Positions 20,351 through 34,224 of a stretch of DNA of 64,000 bases are shown piece after piece; within the stretch, counting starts at the first letter, position 1, and every line of letters begins with the position of its first letter. This DNA comes from Spongiibacteraceae bacterium (GTDB lineage: Bacteria; Pseudomonadota; Gammaproteobacteria; Pseudomonadales; Dasaniaceae). Under the pieces are notes generated by a model. The model worked only from the letters and a program-made list of their open reading frames with translations. It had not been told where the DNA came from and did not search any database. Made by a program: the position numbers and the translations under genes. The stretch lies in NCBI GenBank assembly GCA_028280715.1, contig JANQLG010000012.1, positions 62,211-126,210 on the forward strand, given 5' to 3'.

Positions 20351-21559
20351 TTAACCCTTAACACACACCACCTGCTTTAACGTGTGAACCACTTCCACCA
20401 GATCAGATTGGTTGGCCATCACCTCATCAATATCTTTGTAAGCGCCAGGAATTTCATCAATAACCTTTGAATCCTTCCTACATTCCACGCCCTTTGTTTG
20501 CTCTAACAAATCAGCACGCTTAAAGACTTTGCGTGCAGCACTGCGACTCATCCTGCGCCCGGCACCGTGAGAGCAACTGCAAAACGCATCCGCATTGCCC
20601 TTGCCTCTGACAATGTAAGAACGTGCGCCCATACTGCCCGGTATAATACCCAACTCGCCTTCTCGTGCACTAATCGCCCCTTTGCGCGTAACAAAAACGT
20701 TCTCGCCAAAATGTGATTCTTTCTGCACATAATTATGGTGGCAATTAATGGCAGTGTTTGTGACACTAAATTTTGGCAATAGTGGCTGGATGGCTCGTAT
20801 CACCAAACCCATCATTTGCTCACGATTGATGCGTGCATATTCCTGAGCCCAATTAACCGCTTCTATATAGTCATCAAAATAATCAGCGCCCTCGGTAAAG
20901 TACGCCAGATCTTTATCGGGCAAATGATGCTGATGCCTGGAAATATCTTTCCGGGCCAGCTGGATAAAATGTCTGCCTATGGCATTGCCAATACCTCGGC
21001 TCCCCGAATGCAGCATGATCCAGACTTGATCACTTTGATCGATACATAATTCGATAAAGTGATTACCACTACCCAAGGTTCCCATTTGTTTAACCCAGGC
21101 TTGCTGAGGCTGCCTCAGCATTTTCAGCAATACCGGGTGTTTTTCAAATAGTCGATCAACACCAGGCGCCAACGTTTGGCACGCCTTGGTTCTGGCAGAA
21201 ACTAATTTATGCGCGCTACTGCCCACTGGTACTGCACGCTCAATAGCTTCGCGAATATTTTTCAAGTTATCCGGCAACTGTGAACTTTTCAACGACAAAC
21301 ACACAGCATTCATACCACAACCGATATCGACACCCACCGCAGCAGGAATAATGGCGGACTTGGTTGGAATCACCGAGCCTACCGTTGCGCCAATGCCAGC
21401 ATGCACATCGGGCATAGCTGCAATATGTGAATGCACGATGGGCAGCTGCGCAATATTTTTTAATTGCGTCAAAGCAAGATTATCAATATCACGAGTATAA
21501 ATCTTTACCGGCTTCACGCCATTTTTTGCATTTTTGTTTAATTCGATTTTAACTGTCAT
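20351..21559 (-). CDS. rtcB: RtcB-family 3'-phosphate/5'-hydroxyl RNA ligase (copy 1)
   Basis: Strong similarity to E. coli RtcB and to the copy at 31178..32404 (AAMPDVHxGxGATxGSVxPT, GVDIGCGM, GSRGxGN, CSHGAGR). The TGATG stop/start overlap with the upstream small ORF gives ATG 21559. A GTG at 21562 is also possible. Confidence 0.9.
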   Translation of the reverse strand: MTVKIELNKNAKNGVKPVKIYTRDIDNLALTQLKNIAQLPIVHSHIAAMPDVHAGIGATVGSVIPTKSAIIPAAVGVDIGCGMNAVCLSLKSSQLPDNLKNIREAIERAVPVGSSAHKLVSARTKACQTLAPGVDRLFEKHPVLLKMLRQPQQAWVKQMGTLGSGNHFIELCIDQSDQVWIMLHSGSRGIGNAIGRHFIQLARKDISRHQHHLPDKDLAYFTEGADYFDDYIEAVNWAQEYARINREQMMGLVIRAIQPLLPKFSVTNTAINCHHNYVQKESHFGENVFVTRKGAISAREGELGIIPGSMGARSYIVRGKGNADAFCSCSHGAGRRMSRSAARKVFKRADLLEQTKGVECRKDSKVIDEIPGAYKDIDEVMANQSDLVEVVHTLKQVVCVKG

Positions 21560-21744
21560 CACGATACCACTATCAAATATTGATTAATGATTTCATCAAG
21601 TGCGCCGCAGCGCGACTCGCTCATCAGTTTCCTGGTGGCGAGTTTTGCTGCTTTGCGCTTGGCTCCATTGGATTTCTCATGCACCCCACCCTTTCGCATA
21701 ATGGGATTGATGGCATGAGGGTTTCTCCGTTTTTGCTTAGCCAT
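21559..21744 (-). CDS. Small highly basic protein of unknown function
   Basis: 61 aa. A perfect AGGAGG lies 7 nt upstream of the ATG at 21744. The stop overlaps the rtcB start, and the N-terminal two thirds are Lys/Arg-rich. Confidence 0.6.
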   Translation of the reverse strand: MAKQKRRNPHAINPIMRKGGVHEKSNGAKRKAAKLATRKLMSESRCGALDEIINQYLIVVS

Positions 21745-21756
21745 TTTCTTCCTCCT

Positions 21757-22701
21757 CTAGGCGGCCATACGAAACCATTGTTGTTTTTTCAATGTTTTTA
21801 ACCGACGCTTGGCCTGTTTATCGCCAGCAATAAAGGAAGGGCCTTCATTGACTGTTTCAAAACAAAACTGCCTTGGCAGTTTGGTATACAGGGAGCGAGG
21901 CGGTTTTGAATAATTAATATGCTTCAATGCCGCACCTGTCTCAAAGCTATGGTAGTAAATTGTATTAATCCCTATTTCTTCTACCAAAAACTTAATAGCT
22001 GCACTCAACATCGCCTCACTCCATAGTGCTTTGTGTCGGTTAATTTCAGATTGCAAATAGGTCATTGCCCTATCGACATAAATATCTAATCCGTAATAGC
22101 AAAAGGCTTTTTCCTTTTCTTTAATTGCCAACTTCATTTCATCGGCCAAATATTCGACTTCGCGCAACCAATCATTCTGAATTTCTTCAATCAGTGCTTC
22201 ACCTGTATTAAAGTCCAGATCAATCCTGGCCCAAGCCAAAGTACTACGCGTATCAGATATAGGATGGGCAAAGAATTTAAACAAATCCAAATCGTTACCA
22301 ATGCAATGACGATAGATCTGATCGTGGCGGTTACAGAAATTCATCTGCAATACCAAGTTAGTACCGGGGCGAGAGGTTTGATAATAGCGATAACGCTTTA
22401 CCCTTTCCCTCCCCCATGTTCCTAAAGTCAAAACATAGGATTCGTAATTTTGTGGCCATAATGTCTCAATATCCTCTGCTCTAAGAACACCACTACCGCA
22501 ACGAGCCAACAACGATGTAAATAAAGGCTTATTCATTAACTTGCCTAACTTACTTTTCTTTAAATCCGCCACCTGGCTAGGTCCATTACGTAGCAAATTG
22601 CGCTGTAATAAATAAGCCGCGTAATAATCCTTATAATAAGTAAATAAGGTCCTATCCTTTGGCAGGCAATCAATAATTTCCTGTGCTAATTTTGCTTGCA
22701 T
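21757..22701 (-). CDS. Hypothetical protein, first gene of the rtcB-1 operon
   Basis: 314-aa ORF with no family recognised. Its stop is followed directly by the RBS of the small basic ORF. Confidence 0.55.
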   Translation of the reverse strand: MQAKLAQEIIDCLPKDRTLFTYYKDYYAAYLLQRNLLRNGPSQVADLKKSKLGKLMNKPLFTSLLARCGSGVLRAEDIETLWPQNYESYVLTLGTWGRERVKRYRYYQTSRPGTNLVLQMNFCNRHDQIYRHCIGNDLDLFKFFAHPISDTRSTLAWARIDLDFNTGEALIEEIQNDWLREVEYLADEMKLAIKEKEKAFCYYGLDIYVDRAMTYLQSEINRHKALWSEAMLSAAIKFLVEEIGINTIYYHSFETGAALKHINYSKPPRSLYTKLPRQFCFETVNEGPSFIAGDKQAKRRLKTLKKQQWFRMAA

Positions 22702-32404: not shown

Positions 32405-32470
32405 TGCCTTGTCCTTTAAGTACTGAGTACTTATTAATAATTTTTATCCCATCTCTTTGCCTATGAGTAT

Positions 32471-32486
32471 TGCGAAGGCAGTGCCA
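32471..32486 (-). promoter_or_regulatory. Sigma54 (-24/-12) promoter of rtcB
   Basis: The minus strand reads TGGCAC-TGCCT-TCGCA, with GG and GC at consensus spacing, 67 nt upstream of the rtcB ATG. Confidence 0.75.
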
Positions 32487-32631
32487 ACATTCTTAAAAAG
32501 GTAGAAAATATTTTTATCTTATTGTTTTTAAAGGTTTTATTTTTAGCAGAGTAAAAATTCAAGAAGTTTATCATTCGATTGAATGTATATTTTTATATCT
32601 ATTTTGATATCTATATATTATATTTGATAGC

Positions 32632-34224
32632 ATGAAAACCGTAGCGATCAGCATTCTAGGTACCACTATGGACCGTCGTGGTAAGGGCGAAAAACGCTGG
32701 GACAAATGGCGCCCCACCATTTCCATGTGCCAACACGATGACCTATTGATTGATCGTCTGGAACTGCTATTCGACAACCACTCGCAGAGCCTGGCTGAGC
32801 AAGTCAAAGAGGATATCGCCCGCGTCTCTCCAGAAACCGAAGTGATTTATCACCACGTCAACTTTCATGACCCCTGGGATTTTGAAACGGTCTATGGCGA
32901 ATTGCTCGACTTTGCACGAGGCTATTCTTTTAAACCAAGTAAAGAGCGCTACCTAACACACATCACAACCGGCACCCACGTTGCTCAAATCTGCTTGTAT
33001 CTGTTGACCGAAGCTGGCTACCTGCCAGGCCAATTAATCCAAACATCCCCGGCACCTAGAAACAGTAATGTAGCAGGCCAATATCAAATTATTGATCTGG
33101 ACTTATCCAAGTACGATCAAATTGCGTCGCGCTTTAAAAAGGAGCACTTTGAAGGCACCACTTACTTAAAGGGAGGAATAAAAACCAATAACAAAGCCTT
33201 TAACCAAATGATCGAGCAATTGGAGCAGGTATCGATTCGCTCAAGTGAGCCGATTCTTTTAACTGGCCCCACCGGCGCCGGCAAATCACAACTGGCCCAA
33301 CGGATTTATTCACTAAAAAAACAGCGCGGCCTAATCAGCGGTAATTTGGTCGTCGTCAACTGTGCGACCTTAAAAGGTGAGAATGCCATGTCTGCGTTAT
33401 TTGGCCATAAGAAAGGCGCCTTTACCGGTGCAACAACCGATAGAGCAGGCCTGCTTCGCGAAGCCGATGGCGGCATGTTATTTCTGGATGAAATTGGAGA
33501 ACTTGGTACGGACGAGCAAGCCATGCTGCTACGCGCAATAGAAGATAAAAAATTTATGCCATTCGGCGCTGACAAAGAAACCACCAGCAATTTCTTATTA
33601 ATCGCTGGTACTAATCGCGATTTGAGCGGTCAAGCTCAACGGGGAGAATTCCGCGAGGATTTACACGCCCGCATTGATTTGTGGACCTATCGACTACCTT
33701 CACTTTCAGAAAGGATGGAGGACTTCGAACCAAATCTCGATTATGAACTGGAGAATTACTCCACCAAAACCGGTTATCTCATCAGCTTTAACAAAGATGC
33801 CAGAAAAAAATACCTGCAGTTCGCAACATCGACAGAAGCCACATGGTCAGCCAATTTTCGGGACCTCAATGCCAGCATTACACGCATGGCAACCCTGGCC
33901 AATGGCGGTAGGATTACTGTAAGCGTCGTTAATGAAGAAATTGACCGACTGCAACACAAGTGGCAATCGACAAGCAATAAAAGCCACACCAATGACACAA
34001 CATTACTCAAATCCATTCTCGGTGAAAACAAGATTAAGTCACTGGACTTATACGAGCAGATGACACTAGCACCGGTATTAAAAATTTGTCAAAGCGCCAA
34101 CTCTATGGCCGAAGCAGGAAGAATCCTCTTCAATGTGAGCCGGGAGCAGAAAAAATCCAATAACGACTCACATCGGATAAAACAGATCCTGGATAAACAC
34201 CAGATTAAGTTTGGCGACCTATGA
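32632..34224 (+). CDS. rtcR: RtcR, CARF-domain sigma54-dependent transcriptional activator
   Basis: 530 aa. It has an N-terminal CARF-like region, an AAA+ sigma54-interaction core (LLTGPTGAGKSQLA, GAFTGA, LFLDEIGEL) and a C-terminal HTH. It is divergent from rtcB as in E. coli. Confidence 0.9.
   Translation: MKTVAISILGTTMDRRGKGEKRWDKWRPTISMCQHDDLLIDRLELLFDNHSQSLAEQVKEDIARVSPETEVIYHHVNFHDPWDFETVYGELLDFARGYSFKPSKERYLTHITTGTHVAQICLYLLTEAGYLPGQLIQTSPAPRNSNVAGQYQIIDLDLSKYDQIASRFKKEHFEGTTYLKGGIKTNNKAFNQMIEQLEQVSIRSSEPILLTGPTGAGKSQLAQRIYSLKKQRGLISGNLVVVNCATLKGENAMSALFGHKKGAFTGATTDRAGLLREADGGMLFLDEIGELGTDEQAMLLRAIEDKKFMPFGADKETTSNFLLIAGTNRDLSGQAQRGEFREDLHARIDLWTYRLPSLSERMEDFEPNLDYELENYSTKTGYLISFNKDARKKYLQFATSTEATWSANFRDLNASITRMATLANGGRITVSVVNEEIDRLQHKWQSTSNKSHTNDTTLLKSILGENKIKSLDLYEQMTLAPVLKICQSANSMAEAGRILFNVSREQKKSNNDSHRIKQILDKHQIKFGDL

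Follow-up and report, generated by a model that had tools for sequence, protein, structure and literature searches.

An unusually complete RtcB/Band-7/tRNA-like RNA repair cluster that carries a tRNA cassette and two large RNAs of conserved structure

Results

The window analysed here, a 64,000-nucleotide stretch of DNA from a Spongiibacteraceae bacterium, contains within 14 kb a genuine and unusually complete version of the RtcB/Band-7/tRNA-like RNA repair cluster predicted in 2016 (Table 1). Nearly all of these features had been listed in an earlier note made from the sequence alone, and profile, tRNA, hairpin and promoter checks found them where it had placed them; the protein identities that it had assigned (RtcR, two RtcB, RtcA, HNH, Band-7, Cca and two RlaP) agree with the profile matches. 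No G+C anomaly relative to the rest of the window was seen.

Table 1. Features of the repair region, with positions counted from the first nucleotide of the window
Feature	Position	Strand	Description and support
rtcR	32632..34224	+	CARF-like sensor and sigma54-dependent AAA+ activator; Pfam RtcR E=7e-85, Sigma54_activat E=1e-46
sigma54-type -24/-12 element	32471..32486	-	TGGCACTGCCTTCGCA, TGGCAC-N5-TCGCA; 67 nt upstream of rtcB1
rtcB1	31178..32404	-	RtcR-linked 3'-phosphate/2',3'-cyclic-phosphate RNA ligase; Pfam RtcB E=1.6e-133
RNA-X	30893..31115	-	223 nt, between rtcB1 and rtcA; sequence reading, nhmmer, covariation
rtcA	29860..30870	-	RNA 3'-phosphate cyclase; Pfam RTC E=4e-76 and RTC_insert; most likely start given, mechanical ORF extends to 30936
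Two strong intrinsic-terminator-like hairpins	29550-29510, 29268-29236	-	Between rtcA and tRNA array; 19-pair and 14-pair stems, each with a T-run after it
tRNA array	28414..29143	-	Seven tRNA genes by ARAGORN (Rfam 50-68 bits) and one degenerate element
tRNA-Asn(GTT)	29069-29143	-	ARAGORN, Rfam
Degenerate Tyr(GTA)-like element	about 28975-29062	-	Alignment to tRNA-Tyr of L019
tRNA-His(GTG)	28900-28972	-	ARAGORN, Rfam
tRNA-Gln(TTG)	28818-28891	-	ARAGORN, Rfam
tRNA-Cys(GCA)	28724-28798	-	ARAGORN, Rfam
tRNA-Pro(TGG)	28631-28708	-	ARAGORN, Rfam
tRNA-Lys(TTT)	28540-28614	-	ARAGORN, Rfam
tRNA-Leu(TAG)	28414-28492	-	ARAGORN, Rfam
HNH endonuclease	27773..28336	-	HNH_5, 187 aa; Pfam E=2e-17
b7a-tRNA	27571..27646	-	Band-7-associated tRNA-like RNA, CAU loop; ARAGORN, Rfam 71 bits
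Structured leader	27207..27570	-	Continuous with b7a-tRNA; 15-locus alignment, RNAalifold
Band-7	26061..27206	-	Soluble SPFH/Band-7 ('slipin'), 381 aa, N-terminal extension of ~150 aa; Pfam Band_7 E=2e-30
Terminator-like hairpin after Band-7	26056-26023		
cca	24766..26019	-	Multifunctional CCA-adding/repair enzyme with HD phosphohydrolase domain; Pfam PolyA_pol, RNA-binding, HD
Divergent RlaP-like gene	23834..24739	-	Pol-beta nucleotidyltransferase; Pfam RlaP E=1.5e-16
RlaP gene	23070..23837	-	Canonical PF10127 nucleotidyltransferase; Pfam RlaP E=2.7e-66
Terminator-like hairpin after second RlaP	22951-22934		
314-aa protein	21757..22701	-	Unnamed family, GNAT-like fold core
61-aa basic protein	21559..21744	-	14 K+R, conserved partner of 314-aa protein; homologous small ORFs in relatives
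rtcB2	20351..21562	-	Second RtcB ligase; Pfam RtcB E=5e-130

The count of gene neighbourhoods covered 80 genomic loci with a homologue of Band-7, and 78 further metagenomic loci came from the RNA-X search. Among the 80, a b7a-tRNA lies just upstream of Band-7 in 71, and RtcB is found in 65, RtcR in 57 (where, as here, rtcR is divergent from rtcB), RtcA in 38, RlaP and HNH in 20 each, a tRNA array in 14, and Cca in 5. The genes are co-conserved in relatives, with the recurrent syntax RtcR / RtcB, RtcA, [tRNA array + HNH], tRNA-like RNA, Band-7, [Cca, RlaP]. Nearly the full composite, with Cca, RlaP, a further RtcB and 314-aa homologues, occurs in L002/L095 and L019, and an enterobacterial rtcR / slipin-NTase locus also exists. 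The earlier view of three fused repair modules holds only in part, since RtcR-RtcB-RtcA-b7a-tRNA-Band-7 is one recurrent system; the actual second unit is [array-HNH-b7a-Band-7...RtcB2], which stands without RtcR in three loci (L116, L161, L163).

RtcB1 shares 75-89% identity with the RtcR-adjacent RtcB of related loci, and the sigma54 promoter suspected before rtcB could be located and is kept in relatives as TTGGCAC-N5-TCGCT; of 50 related loci, 25 have the strict pattern TTGGCAC-N5-TCGC[TA] before rtcB, and where b7a-tRNA or Band-7 comes first after rtcR, the element is found upstream of these. No second sigma54 site was found in the region. Hairpins account for the terminators claimed after rtcA and after the nucleotidyltransferases. 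Translation of rtcA most probably begins with the GTG at 30870 rather than the TTG at 30936, because the latter would run into the spacer RNA (RNA-X); the Pfam match begins at residue 31.

RNA-X is what the CCA-terminated tRNA-like element noticed in the rtcB-rtcA spacer turned out to be, a real, conserved and covarying RNA. Its acceptor stem is 7 bp long (G1-C72, G2-C71, G3·U70) and goes with A73 and a CCA that is encoded; there is a T-arm, and a conserved core of ~150 nt stands in place of the D and anticodon arms. Its acceptor end resembles that of tRNA-Ala/tmRNA (G3·U70, A73, encoded CCA), G3·U70 being kept in 73 of 74 sequences, and tmRNA, at 20 bits, is its sole Rfam match. It was detected in 86 loci (8 genomic, by nhmmer, and 78 metagenomic) and is confined to these repair loci, with Rtc, Band-7 or tRNA-array genes beside it wherever there is enough flank. 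Covariation support is strong: of the 59 pairs that RNAalifold predicts, 35 show compensatory changes, 96.3% of cells are paired, and the covariation score of 0.52, compared with 0.08-0.13 in slid controls, was reached by none of 500 shuffles.

The tRNA with a CAU loop, once assigned to a 'private tRNA set', is instead the cognate b7a-tRNA of Band-7; it was rejected as an ordinary decoding gene, as it belongs to a family of tRNA-like RNAs with a conserved body and an anticodon loop hypervariable in sequence and length (6-8 nt). Its 3' end reads A-CC-G, and CCA is not fully encoded. The ~440 nt from b7a-tRNA to the Band-7 start codon are one conserved structured RNA, whose hairpin-rich 360-nt leader, already remarked upon, retains its structure across 15 loci (89 pairs predicted by RNAalifold, 62 with compensatory changes). 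The leader consists of a hairpin (27570-27554), a mini tRNA-like element in which a GNRA hairpin joins a T-arm (27553-27511), another hairpin, and a multi-helix domain of ~235 nt, in which about 27484-27475 pairs with about 27249-27241 to close it. Band-7 itself, with homologues of 45-84% identity across Gamma- and Betaproteobacteria, was rightly called anchorless, no transmembrane segment being found by hydropathy (best 19-residue value 0.95).

Downstream, Cca scores 621 bits against the NCBIfam equivalog PRK10885 (cut-off 451), may be the sole housekeeping copy of the cell, and occupies the same relative position in six loci (L002, L019, L062, L066, L077, L095). The two RlaP genes overlap by 4 nt and their products are 22% identical; the divergent one has 64-84% identical homologues in L002, L014, L026, L041 and L095, and enzymes of the family add 1-2 NMP to damaged RNA 3'-OH ends (PMC12776372). 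Neither the 314-aa nor the 61-aa protein has a family match in the profile search; the genes for this GNAT-fold protein and its small basic partner form a conserved pair that frequently adjoins RtcB. In L082, L164 and L165 a homologous small ORF comes immediately after the gene for the 314-aa homologue and shares the motif RN-x-x-A-x-x-P-x-x-R-x-GGVH-x-KS. RtcB2 is 57% identical to RtcB1 and 60-67% identical to RtcB proteins beside Band-7 or within tRNA arrays (L019, L027, L079, L116, L161), and is of the type sitting directly downstream of Band-7 in clusters lacking RtcR.

The region could, in principle, be a chance juxtaposition of functionally unconnected operons (housekeeping tRNA, Rtc and second RtcB) and a housekeeping cca, in keeping with terminators and separate promoter-like sites that split it into at least four transcription units, the lack of a compositional island signature, and a Cca score above the housekeeping threshold. 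Such a coincidence is highly improbable, and co-conservation goes most of the way to refuting it: gene order and content are repeated in Gamma- and Betaproteobacteria alike and in the 78 metagenomic loci, Cca, RlaP, the 314-aa protein and an extra RtcB hold the same relative positions in the six loci named above and in L163, and the range of Band-7 identities, from 45% to 84%, indicates that the related loci are not one recent clone.

Nine tRNA genes had been counted at first; ARAGORN and Rfam give eight, the seven packed ones and the one with the CAU loop. The eighth packed element was rejected as an intact tRNA, being a tRNA-Tyr(GUA) homologue that has lost 5 nt from the 3' side of its acceptor stem. 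The arrays of related loci, 12 of the 14 with HNH, range from 3 to 19 genes, and their commonest species (His, Lys, Asn, Pro, Gln, Asp) coincide in part with the tRNAs that colicin E5, PrrC/RloC and gamma-toxin-type nucleases are known to attack.

Array and HNH might alternatively form a selfish mobile homing cassette, akin to cyanobacterial L-arrays and targeting tRNA-like DNA near b7a-tRNA, which sits without repair function in an ordinary Rtc/Band-7 operon, its conserved insertion site mimicking integration. Its patchy occurrence and variable size would fit, as would the placing of HNH ~690 nt upstream of b7a-tRNA each time (in 11 related loci), tRNA-Asn genes ~95% identical between loci whose proteins share ~65-75% identity, and the established idea of homing endonucleases in tRNA clusters, such as SegB of phage T4 (PMC8421152). 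A 42%-identical HNH homologue indeed lies within a tRNA cluster of Salicola phage SCTP-2, and in all 3 other genomes sampled a member of the same family stands by itself with neither tRNAs nor Band-7 nearby, so HNH may be a mere selfish passenger. However, arrays recur at differing positions, upstream of b7a, downstream of Band-7 (L038, L042, L048) or upstream of rtcR (L069), and some embed RtcB or ArfA genes (L019, L154, L163), a pattern that points to the association having been selected repeatedly and not to a single target site. Moreover, HNH-b7a-Band-7 exists without any array (L015, L017), the identities of the best 120 HNH homologues (57-76%) are comparable to those of the best 120 Band-7 homologues (67-84%), unusual for a decaying selfish gene, and array, HNH and rtcB are co-induced in Anabaena. 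A purely selfish origin is rather doubtful.

Discussion

In the window, a known RNA-repair system still uncharacterised by experiment takes a maximal, modular form, in a Cellvibrionaceae-like gammaproteobacterium, and the region is quite probably built from two units. Starting from the observed gene identities, co-conservation, RNA structures and sigma54 site, we infer the following steps. Unit 1 is the classical RtcR/sigma54-controlled operon, rtcB1-RNA-X-rtcA, with RtcR activated by tRNA fragments or nicked tRNAs bearing 2',3'-cyclic phosphate ends, as proposed from work on Salmonella (PMC7790460, PMC10159003). RtcB would reseal 2',3'-cP/5'-OH breaks and RtcA would turn 3'-phosphate ends into ligatable cyclic ones. 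RNA-X, with the AlaRS identity set at its acceptor end, is a putative second cognate RNA cofactor of the whole system. Unit 2 comprises [tRNA array-HNH]-b7a-RNA-Band-7-Cca-RlaP-RlaP, then p314-p61-RtcB2. Here the soluble SPFH protein and its ~440-nt cognate RNA, with tRNA-like head and large structured domain, probably act as a scaffold or cage holding broken tRNAs. Cca would restore 3'-CCA ends (its HD domain possibly stripping blocking phosphates), the two RlaP enzymes would put back one or two nucleotides excised by 'smart' ribotoxins, and RtcB2 would seal the break. The array (Asn, His, Gln, Cys, Pro, Lys, Leu) may be a horizontally mobile accessory cassette of spare or decoy copies of tRNA species that are typical targets of anticodon nucleases, its spread most likely promoted by HNH.

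Sequence supports RtcR/sigma54 control here solely for rtcB1-RNA-X-rtcA. Two strong terminators part this operon from the tRNA array; together with the absence of a second sigma54 site, they suggest that unit 2 may be independently regulated in this genome, and its co-regulation with unit 1 in a single response is no more than conceivable.

The syntax of ligase, RlaP, Band-7 and tRNA-like RNA, which the earlier note had cited, is confirmed at second hand for b7a-tRNA/Band-7/RtcB by 10.1101/312249, citing Burroughs and Aravind (2016). Beyond that predicted cluster, the region adds the tRNA cassette and two large RNAs of conserved structure, for which a literature search found no published description. 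The combination had been taken as uncharacterised; this appears true of three seemingly new parts, namely RNA-X, the ~440-nt RNA with its leader and the 314-aa/small basic protein gene pair, but not of the link between array, HNH and RtcB, published for cyanobacterial L-arrays, tRNA arrays that have an HNH gene and RtcB in their neighbourhoods, rtcB being co-regulated in Anabaena (PMC8421152).

Another reading, somewhat short of an even chance, takes the region as a physically clustered gammaproteobacterial counterpart of the Anabaena TrcR regulon. Ribosome-targeting antibiotics or stalls in translation would induce it, and it would boost tRNA supply and ribosome rescue rather than specifically heal nuclease cuts. 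The ArfA ribosome-rescue gene lying inside the Aurantivibrio cluster and the tmRNA-like acceptor end of RNA-X speak for it, whereas RtcR, RlaP, Cca and RtcA are end-healing and damage-sensing parts that fit nuclease damage specifically, and the hypervariable b7a-tRNA anticodon loop looks less like housekeeping than an arms race. This reading and the preferred one of RNA repair are compatible, not mutually exclusive. In Anabaena, tRNA array, HNH and rtcB are co-induced by translation inhibitors (PMC8421152), and array, HNH, rtcB, slipin and GNATs are de-repressed together (PMC10272220), forming one translational-stress regulon whose same parts are found in the window.

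Gene content of the cluster

The cluster is a composite of RNA-repair genes, much as the earlier note had read it: ORF listing and profile searches agree on every gene from RtcR to RtcB2 (see the table), and the observation is confirmed with minor corrections only. RtcB1 and RtcA share a strand and have nothing between them except RNA-X, a 223-nt structured RNA, which is the arrangement of an RtcR-RtcBA RNA-repair operon. The Cca protein carries the head, RNA-binding and HD domains of the E. coli type as three Pfam domains. The two nucleotidyltransferases (NTases) downstream, described before as overlapping and of the pol-beta type, both belong to PF10127 (scores of 224 and 61 bits; gathering score, 23) and overlap by 4 nt, and the Band-7 protein, a member of the SPFH/slipin proteins, lacks any hydrophobic segment, in keeping with its having been called anchorless.

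Features of the cluster and of the surrounding window
Feature	Position	Strand	Match or remark
RtcR	32632-34224	+	Pfam RtcR/CARF domain and Sigma54_activat
Sigma54-type element	32471-32486		TGGCAC-N5-TCGCA, 67 nt upstream of rtcB1
RtcB1	31178-32404	-	Pfam RtcB, E=1.6e-133
RNA-X	30893-31115	-	5'-GGGUGUG...CACGUCC-A-CCA-3', canonical T-arm
RtcA	29860-30936 (ORF)	-	Pfam RTC, E=4e-76; GTG at 30870 is a better start placement than the ORF start at 30936
Interval between post-rtcA terminators	29268-29510	-	~240 nt; promoter-like site 29434-29407, 61-aa ORF 29321-29506
Degenerate tRNA-Tyr(GUA) homologue	~28975-29062		
HNH_5 endonuclease	27773-28336	-	Pfam HNH_5
b7a-tRNA	27571-27646	-	Band-7-associated tRNA-like RNA
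Band_7 protein	26061-27206	-	Pfam Band_7, E=2e-30
Cca	24766-26019	-	NCBIfam equivalog PRK10885, 621 bits (cut-off 451)
RlaP-like NTase	23834-24739	-	Weak Pfam RlaP match
RlaP NTase	23070-23837	-	Strong Pfam RlaP match
19-codon ORF	22837-22896	-	MFINKNSVTLLGLAGQFFS
314-aa protein	21757-22701	-	Without family match
61-aa basic protein	21559-21744	-	Without family match
RtcB2	20351-21562	-	Pfam RtcB; 57% identity to RtcB1
tRNA-Pro(GGG)	50116-50192	-	Lone tRNA gene

Where nine tRNA genes had been counted, ARAGORN and Rfam recognise eight: those for Asn, His, Gln, Cys, Pro, Lys and Leu, packed together, and, downstream of the HNH gene, one with CAU. The eighth packed gene is a degenerate homologue of tRNA-Tyr(GUA), which aligns with the array tRNA-Tyr of Endobugula and has a 3' acceptor strand short of 5 nt. 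Elsewhere in the 64-kb window there is a single tRNA gene, that of a tRNA-Pro(GGG), presumably housekeeping. Between the second RlaP gene and that of the 314-aa protein, directly past a terminator-like hairpin, lies a 19-codon ORF preceded by a AAAGGAGG ribosome-binding site; this ORF may encode a leader peptide or have arisen by chance.

The cluster is flanked by ordinary metabolic and regulatory genes (MarR, DUF4166, PhyH and others), none of the flanking genes examined being an integrase or phage gene. No TROVE (Ro60/Rsr) match occurs in the 19 ORFs scanned between 17450 and 37450, and the PADLOC anti-phage defence libraries match only a generic HNH domain. A phage or plasmid origin was rejected: neither the Band-7 protein nor RNA-X has phage matches, the region displays no compositional anomaly (G+C is even throughout the window), and the Band-7 matches labelled 'plasmid' are chromids or mislabelled chromosomes.

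Conservation across Band-7 loci

Homologues of the Band-7 protein number in the thousands and are annotated 'slipin family protein', the best-scoring ones coming mostly from Cellvibrionaceae, Microbulbifer and related marine Gammaproteobacteria. Eighty genomic loci around such homologues (84-45% identity) were mapped by tblastn and ARAGORN. Their prevailing order is a divergent RtcR, then RtcB, RtcA, the tRNA array and HNH where present, a tRNA-like gene, Band-7 and, in some, Cca, RlaP and others. The tRNA-like gene upstream of Band-7 was found in 71 of the 80 loci, RtcB in 65, RtcR in 57, RtcA in 38, RlaP and HNH in 20 each, Cca in five and the 314-aa protein in two, while arrays of at least three tRNA genes occurred in 14, 12 of them with HNH; all these counts are lower bounds, many loci being incomplete at their ends. 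A nearly full composite, containing Cca, RlaP, an additional RtcB and 314-aa homologues, is present in a Cellvibrionaceae MAG (L002, with the identical metagenome sequence L095) and in Candidatus Endobugula (L019). The recurrent order and content, together with these near-full composites in relatives, exclude chance adjacency, and the gene-neighbourhood comparison proposed in the earlier note thus finds the genes co-conserved. Ligases of the RtcB2 type stand directly after Band-7 or inside arrays in clusters that lack RtcR (L019, L079, L116, L161); in the window, then, an RtcR-controlled unit is joined to a Band-7 unit equipped with its own ligase.

A ~440-nt RNA upstream of Band-7

The tRNA(CAU) claimed downstream of the HNH gene is present but is not an ordinary tRNA. 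The bodies of the tRNA-like genes found at this site are nearly invariant between loci, while their anticodon loops are hypervariable in sequence (CAU, AAU, UAU, AAA, AAG, AUU, AGU and others) and range from 6 to 8 nt in length, and these traits mark the window gene as a b7a-tRNA. The term 'band 7-associated tRNA' is credited to Burroughs and Aravind (2016) in 10.1101/312249, and fits these genes. In the window the RNA ends in ...CAAAGUA-A-CC-G, so that CCA is not fully encoded.

What follows had been described as a 360-nt hairpin-rich leader, and an alignment of 15 loci bears this out, the interval from the b7a-tRNA to the Band-7 start codon being conserved along its full length. Its elements are, in order, a hairpin, a mini tRNA-like element (a GNRA hairpin and a GGGGUUCGAGUCCCC T-arm), a second hairpin, and a ~235-nt multi-helix domain closed by long-range pairing, in the window of AGAGGCUCAU with GUGAGCCUC. 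Covariation is seen in the closing helix, GAAGCUCA/UGAGCUUC of locus L014 being one case, and RNAalifold predicts 89 pairs for the leader, 62 of them with compensatory changes. By this alignment, the b7a-tRNA is only the head of a conserved RNA of ~440 nt. In more distant Band-7 loci (L049-L078; Methylobacter, Cellvibrio and others), two tandem tRNA-like genes, or three in L066, lie upstream of Band-7 at ~9590-9745, and in several the anticodon call is unusual (for instance ATT, TTA (stop) or undetermined). Such tandems may be the counterpart of the tRNA and mini-tRNA found together in the window.

RNA-X, a tRNA-like RNA of RNA-repair operons

The CCA-terminated tRNA-like element noticed earlier in the rtcB-rtcA spacer is a genuine RNA of wide occurrence. 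With four copies from Cellvibrionaceae as the basis of an HMM, RNA-X is detected in eight genomic loci, those of Burkholderiales having it between Band-7 and rtcB, and a scan with two invariant blocks adds 78 loci in metagenome contigs, all with the full RNA. Where enough flank is available, its neighbours are RtcR, b7a-tRNA, Band-7, RtcB, RlaP, RtcA, or the head of a tRNA array. Across 74 sequences, G1-C72, G2-C71 and G3·U70 are kept in 73, and A73 and CCA are encoded in 73, while acceptor positions 4-7 show covariation, six or more different stems being seen there. RNAalifold places 59 pairs on 19 representatives, 35 with compensatory changes; 96.3% of cells are paired, and the covariation score of 0.52, compared with 0.08-0.13 when partners are slid, is reached by none of 500 shuffles. 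Single-sequence folding z-scores for RNA-X and the small elements are unremarkable (-1.4, -0.5, -1.4, -0.9), and the case for structure is therefore built on covariation rather than on folding energy. Some copies are enlarged or repeated: the one in L002 (5532-5828) and L095 has a ~60-nt lineage-specific insertion within the T-loop, that in L014 (7948-8245) a 75-nt lineage-specific block of three hairpins in its core, and metagenomic L158 (2734-3230) yields two nhmmer matches ~370 nt apart.

Could RNA-X be a tmRNA (SsrA)? Both have a 7-bp acceptor stem with G1-C72, G2-C71 and G3·U70, followed by A73 and CCA, a T-arm, and a large insert that replaces the anticodon arm; moreover, the RNA-X family is absent from Rfam 15, where its sole match, at the 3' end, is to tmRNA. 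That match is weak, however (20 bits, against a gathering score of 47), ARAGORN makes no call, RNA-X measures 223-250 nt as against ~360 nt and, unlike tmRNA, is encoded within RNA-repair operons, and frame-shifting indels between lineages leave no conserved tag reading frame. The tmRNA combination of tag frame, resume codon and pseudoknot architecture is not recognised in RNA-X, and this identity was rejected. A YrlA/Y RNA, the tRNA-mimicking type of Salmonella, was discarded as well, and the b7a RNA does not qualify as one either: the scanned ORFs include no Rsr gene, an Rfam scan at E<=1 returns no Y-RNA family, and the acceptor ends of RNA-X, with CCA and G3·U70, are free and unpermuted at both 5' and 3' sides. 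In YrlA, by contrast, the tRNA-like domain is permuted and a Ro-binding stem closes it.

In tRNA, G3·U70 and A73 make up the identity set of alanyl-tRNA synthetase (AlaRS). The invariance of the G3·U70 wobble within an otherwise covarying stem suggests selection for alanine identity on the acceptor end of RNA-X. A bolder and rather doubtful proposal is that RNA-X represents an undescribed class of alanine-accepting, tmRNA-like RNAs serving as an integral cofactor of Band-7/RtcB systems, and that it forms with the b7a RNA a two-RNA ribonucleoprotein machine. Were RNA-X to accept alanine, AlaRS would charge it via the conserved G3·U70/A73/CCA end, and the charged end could then be a handle for EF-Tu or the ribosome, a substrate of the GNAT-fold 314-aa protein, or a bait for toxins that attack tRNA acceptor ends.

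tRNA arrays and the HNH gene

The window array comprises seven canonical tRNA genes and one degenerate gene, related loci have 3-19 and one metagenomic locus has 24, the commonest species in related loci being His, Lys, Asn, Pro, Gln, Asp and Met. The distribution of arrays among otherwise homologous loci is patchy and HGT-like, and the window, Porticoccus and a Cellvibrionaceae MAG share tRNA-Asn at ~95% identity, against ~65-75% for their proteins. That most relatives have no array at this site leads us to infer that the array tRNAs are supernumerary. In L002 (7760-7960; likewise in L095), a tRNA-His(GTG) gene is apparently interrupted: its 5' half runs to just past the anticodon, and ~150 nt of insert come before the remaining 3' half with T-arm and acceptor strand. 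The insert could represent an intron, or a mobile element that has entered a bacterial tRNA gene. The array of Aurantivibrio infirmus (L163, 1349-7936), in the order tRNA-Phe, ArfA, Asn, Leu, Leu, Pro, RtcB, HNH, b7a, Band-7, 314-aa homologue, includes a gene for the 46-aa ribosome-rescue factor ArfA, which ties the system to ribosome rescue.

Eleven loci have the HNH gene ~690 nt upstream of the b7a-tRNA, and in Halieaceae (L015, L017) HNH, b7a and Band-7 form a unit of their own that has neither array nor RtcB. Conservation of the HNH family is good among marine Gammaproteobacteria (57-76% identity among the best 120 homologues), and a homologue 42% identical sits inside a tRNA cluster of Salicola phage SCTP-2. 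The idea that HNH is an obligate component is weakened by its occurrence as a lone gene, without a nearby tRNA, in all three genomes sampled outside the Band-7 set.

The 314-aa and 61-aa protein pair

For the 314-aa protein, which has a GNAT-like fold core, 820 homologues were detected; among the 120 matches listed there is no Pfam domain, and those with a name are called 'hypothetical protein'. Homologues adjoin RtcB in four loci (L082, L165, L002, L019) and Band-7 in Aurantivibrio (L163); in L164 (6000-8163) an NYN RNase-domain protein, not RtcB, lies beside the homologue and its small basic partner, and in L081 and L166 there is no relevant neighbour. The partner, a homologue of the 61-aa protein, is encoded directly 3' in L082, L164 and L165; an ArfA-like nature of the 61-aa protein was dismissed, Pfam giving it no support even at E<=10. 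Sequence searches of the 314-aa protein did not return a GNAT acyltransferase profile match together with an acetyl-CoA-binding motif. GNAT-fold enzymes that act on tRNA include the TacT/AtaT toxins, TmcA and Elp3, and acyl transfer onto tRNA or RNA-X would thus be a reasonable guess for its activity.

Regulation

The sigma54 promoter claimed for the first operon is indeed found upstream of rtcB1, and relatives keep it as TTGGCAC-N5-TCGCT; this -24/-12 element goes with a divergent RtcR whose N-domain is of the CARF type and which also carries a sigma54 AAA+ domain. In Salmonella, RtcR-RtcBA is induced by tRNA fragments ending in 2',3'-cyclic phosphate (PMC7790460, PMC10159003). A second sigma54 promoter was not found within the window cluster. 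Among the 20 loci where b7a and Band-7 come first after rtcR, eight have a sigma54-type element, by the pattern used, ahead of them, and an element with one mismatch occurs in the rtcR-slipin gap of a Citrobacter locus; such elements make RtcR control of Band-7 and the b7a RNA likely in many genomes. Hairpins resembling strong terminators lie behind rtcA (two) and the second RlaP gene, as had been proposed, and behind Band-7 as well. The interval between the two after rtcA yields weak 'His_leader'-type Rfam matches, of which the terminators are probably the cause.

In the Citrobacter freundii locus (L167, 4960-8913), rtcR is divergent from genes for a slipin, 43% identical to the window protein, and an NTase, without RtcB, and the 450-nt gap contains both the sigma54-like element and a T-arm-like GTGGGTTCGATTCCCA. 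Band-7 homologues also occur in the E. coli records H20 and H21. This enterobacterial rtcR/slipin-NTase locus offers a tractable model for the function of Band-7 and its RNA.

Significance

The interpretation offered in the earlier note is partly supported. Its fused repair modules do form one co-evolving RNA-repair supersystem, yet the fusion is a maximal variant of a predicted family and not unprecedented, and the link between tRNA array, HNH and RtcB is already published (PMC8421152, PMC10272220). The Band-7/b7a-tRNA branch of RtcB systems is a 2016 prediction; b7a-tRNA lacks experimental validation according to a 2018 paper, the sole one to name it in the literature searched, where no experimental study of the Band-7 branch was found either. 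What is added are three seemingly undescribed parts, namely RNA-X (whose acceptor end is of the alanine type), the ~440-nt b7a RNA and the pair of GNAT-fold and small basic proteins, for which neither Rfam 15 nor the searchable literature holds a description, although the 2016 survey may mention some of them. The locus and its relatives thereby enrich the parts list with two large covariation-supported RNAs, one bearing the alanine identity set, and a new conserved protein pair, and reveal repeated recruitment of tRNA arrays, Cca, RlaP and even ArfA. They also link gammaproteobacterial clusters to an experimentally defined translational-stress regulon of Anabaena, a link that suggests a general response of tRNA damage, replacement and repair.

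Comparison with known systems

The closest relative is the system predicted by Burroughs and Aravind (NAR 2016), as relayed in 10.1101/312249 and PMC12776372, with which the combination of ligase, RlaP, Band-7 and tRNA-like RNA named in the earlier note agrees. Going by those accounts, both have RtcB next to Band-7, a tRNA-like RNA directly ahead of the Band-7 gene and an RlaP in association; control by RtcR, seen in many members, and lateral spread are likewise shared. The window exceeds that system, as so described, by a second RtcB, two RlaP paralogues, Cca, a tRNA array with HNH, and the GNAT-fold and small basic proteins; in addition, its tRNA heads a ~440-nt RNA and RNA-X is a second RNA, either of which the 2016 survey may mention. 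The rtcR-rtcBA operons of E. coli and Salmonella (rsr-yrlBA-rtcBA in the latter) share with the window a divergent RtcR (CARF and sigma54 AAA+), a sigma54 promoter, RtcB and RtcA, and the Salmonella type also has a tRNA-mimicking non-coding RNA inside the operon; unlike it, the window has no Ro60/Rsr protein.

Cyanobacterial L-arrays, long sets of up to 43 non-periodic tRNA genes (Santamaria-Gomez et al. 2021), spread horizontally with a conserved HNH alongside and RtcB in their neighbourhoods (PMC8421152). In Anabaena, rtcB is co-induced with the tRNA array under translational stress (PMC8421152), and the TrcR regulon consists of the tRNA array, the HNH gene all8564, rtcB, slipin and GNAT genes (PMC10272220). 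The notion of a damage response with replacement tRNAs thus has experimental backing, albeit in a distant organism, and as a concept is not new. The window resembles these systems in its supernumerary-type array with adjacent HNH, its patchy, HGT-like distribution, its rtcB link and its slipin and GNAT-fold genes, but its array is short (7-8 genes), its parts are physically clustered and at least partly under RtcR/sigma54 instead of the TrcR repressor, and it includes b7a-tRNA, RNA-X, RlaP and Cca. Lastly, phage T4 Pnkp/Rnl and the RtcB/RlaP/Cca/tRNA sets of jumbo phages (PMC7824862) draw on the same toolkit of RNA ligase, RlaP, CCA-adding enzyme, self-encoded tRNAs and HNH within tRNA clusters; unlike these phage clusters, that of the window is chromosomal and cellular, is at least partly RtcR-regulated, and includes a Band-7 protein and an RNA-X without phage matches.
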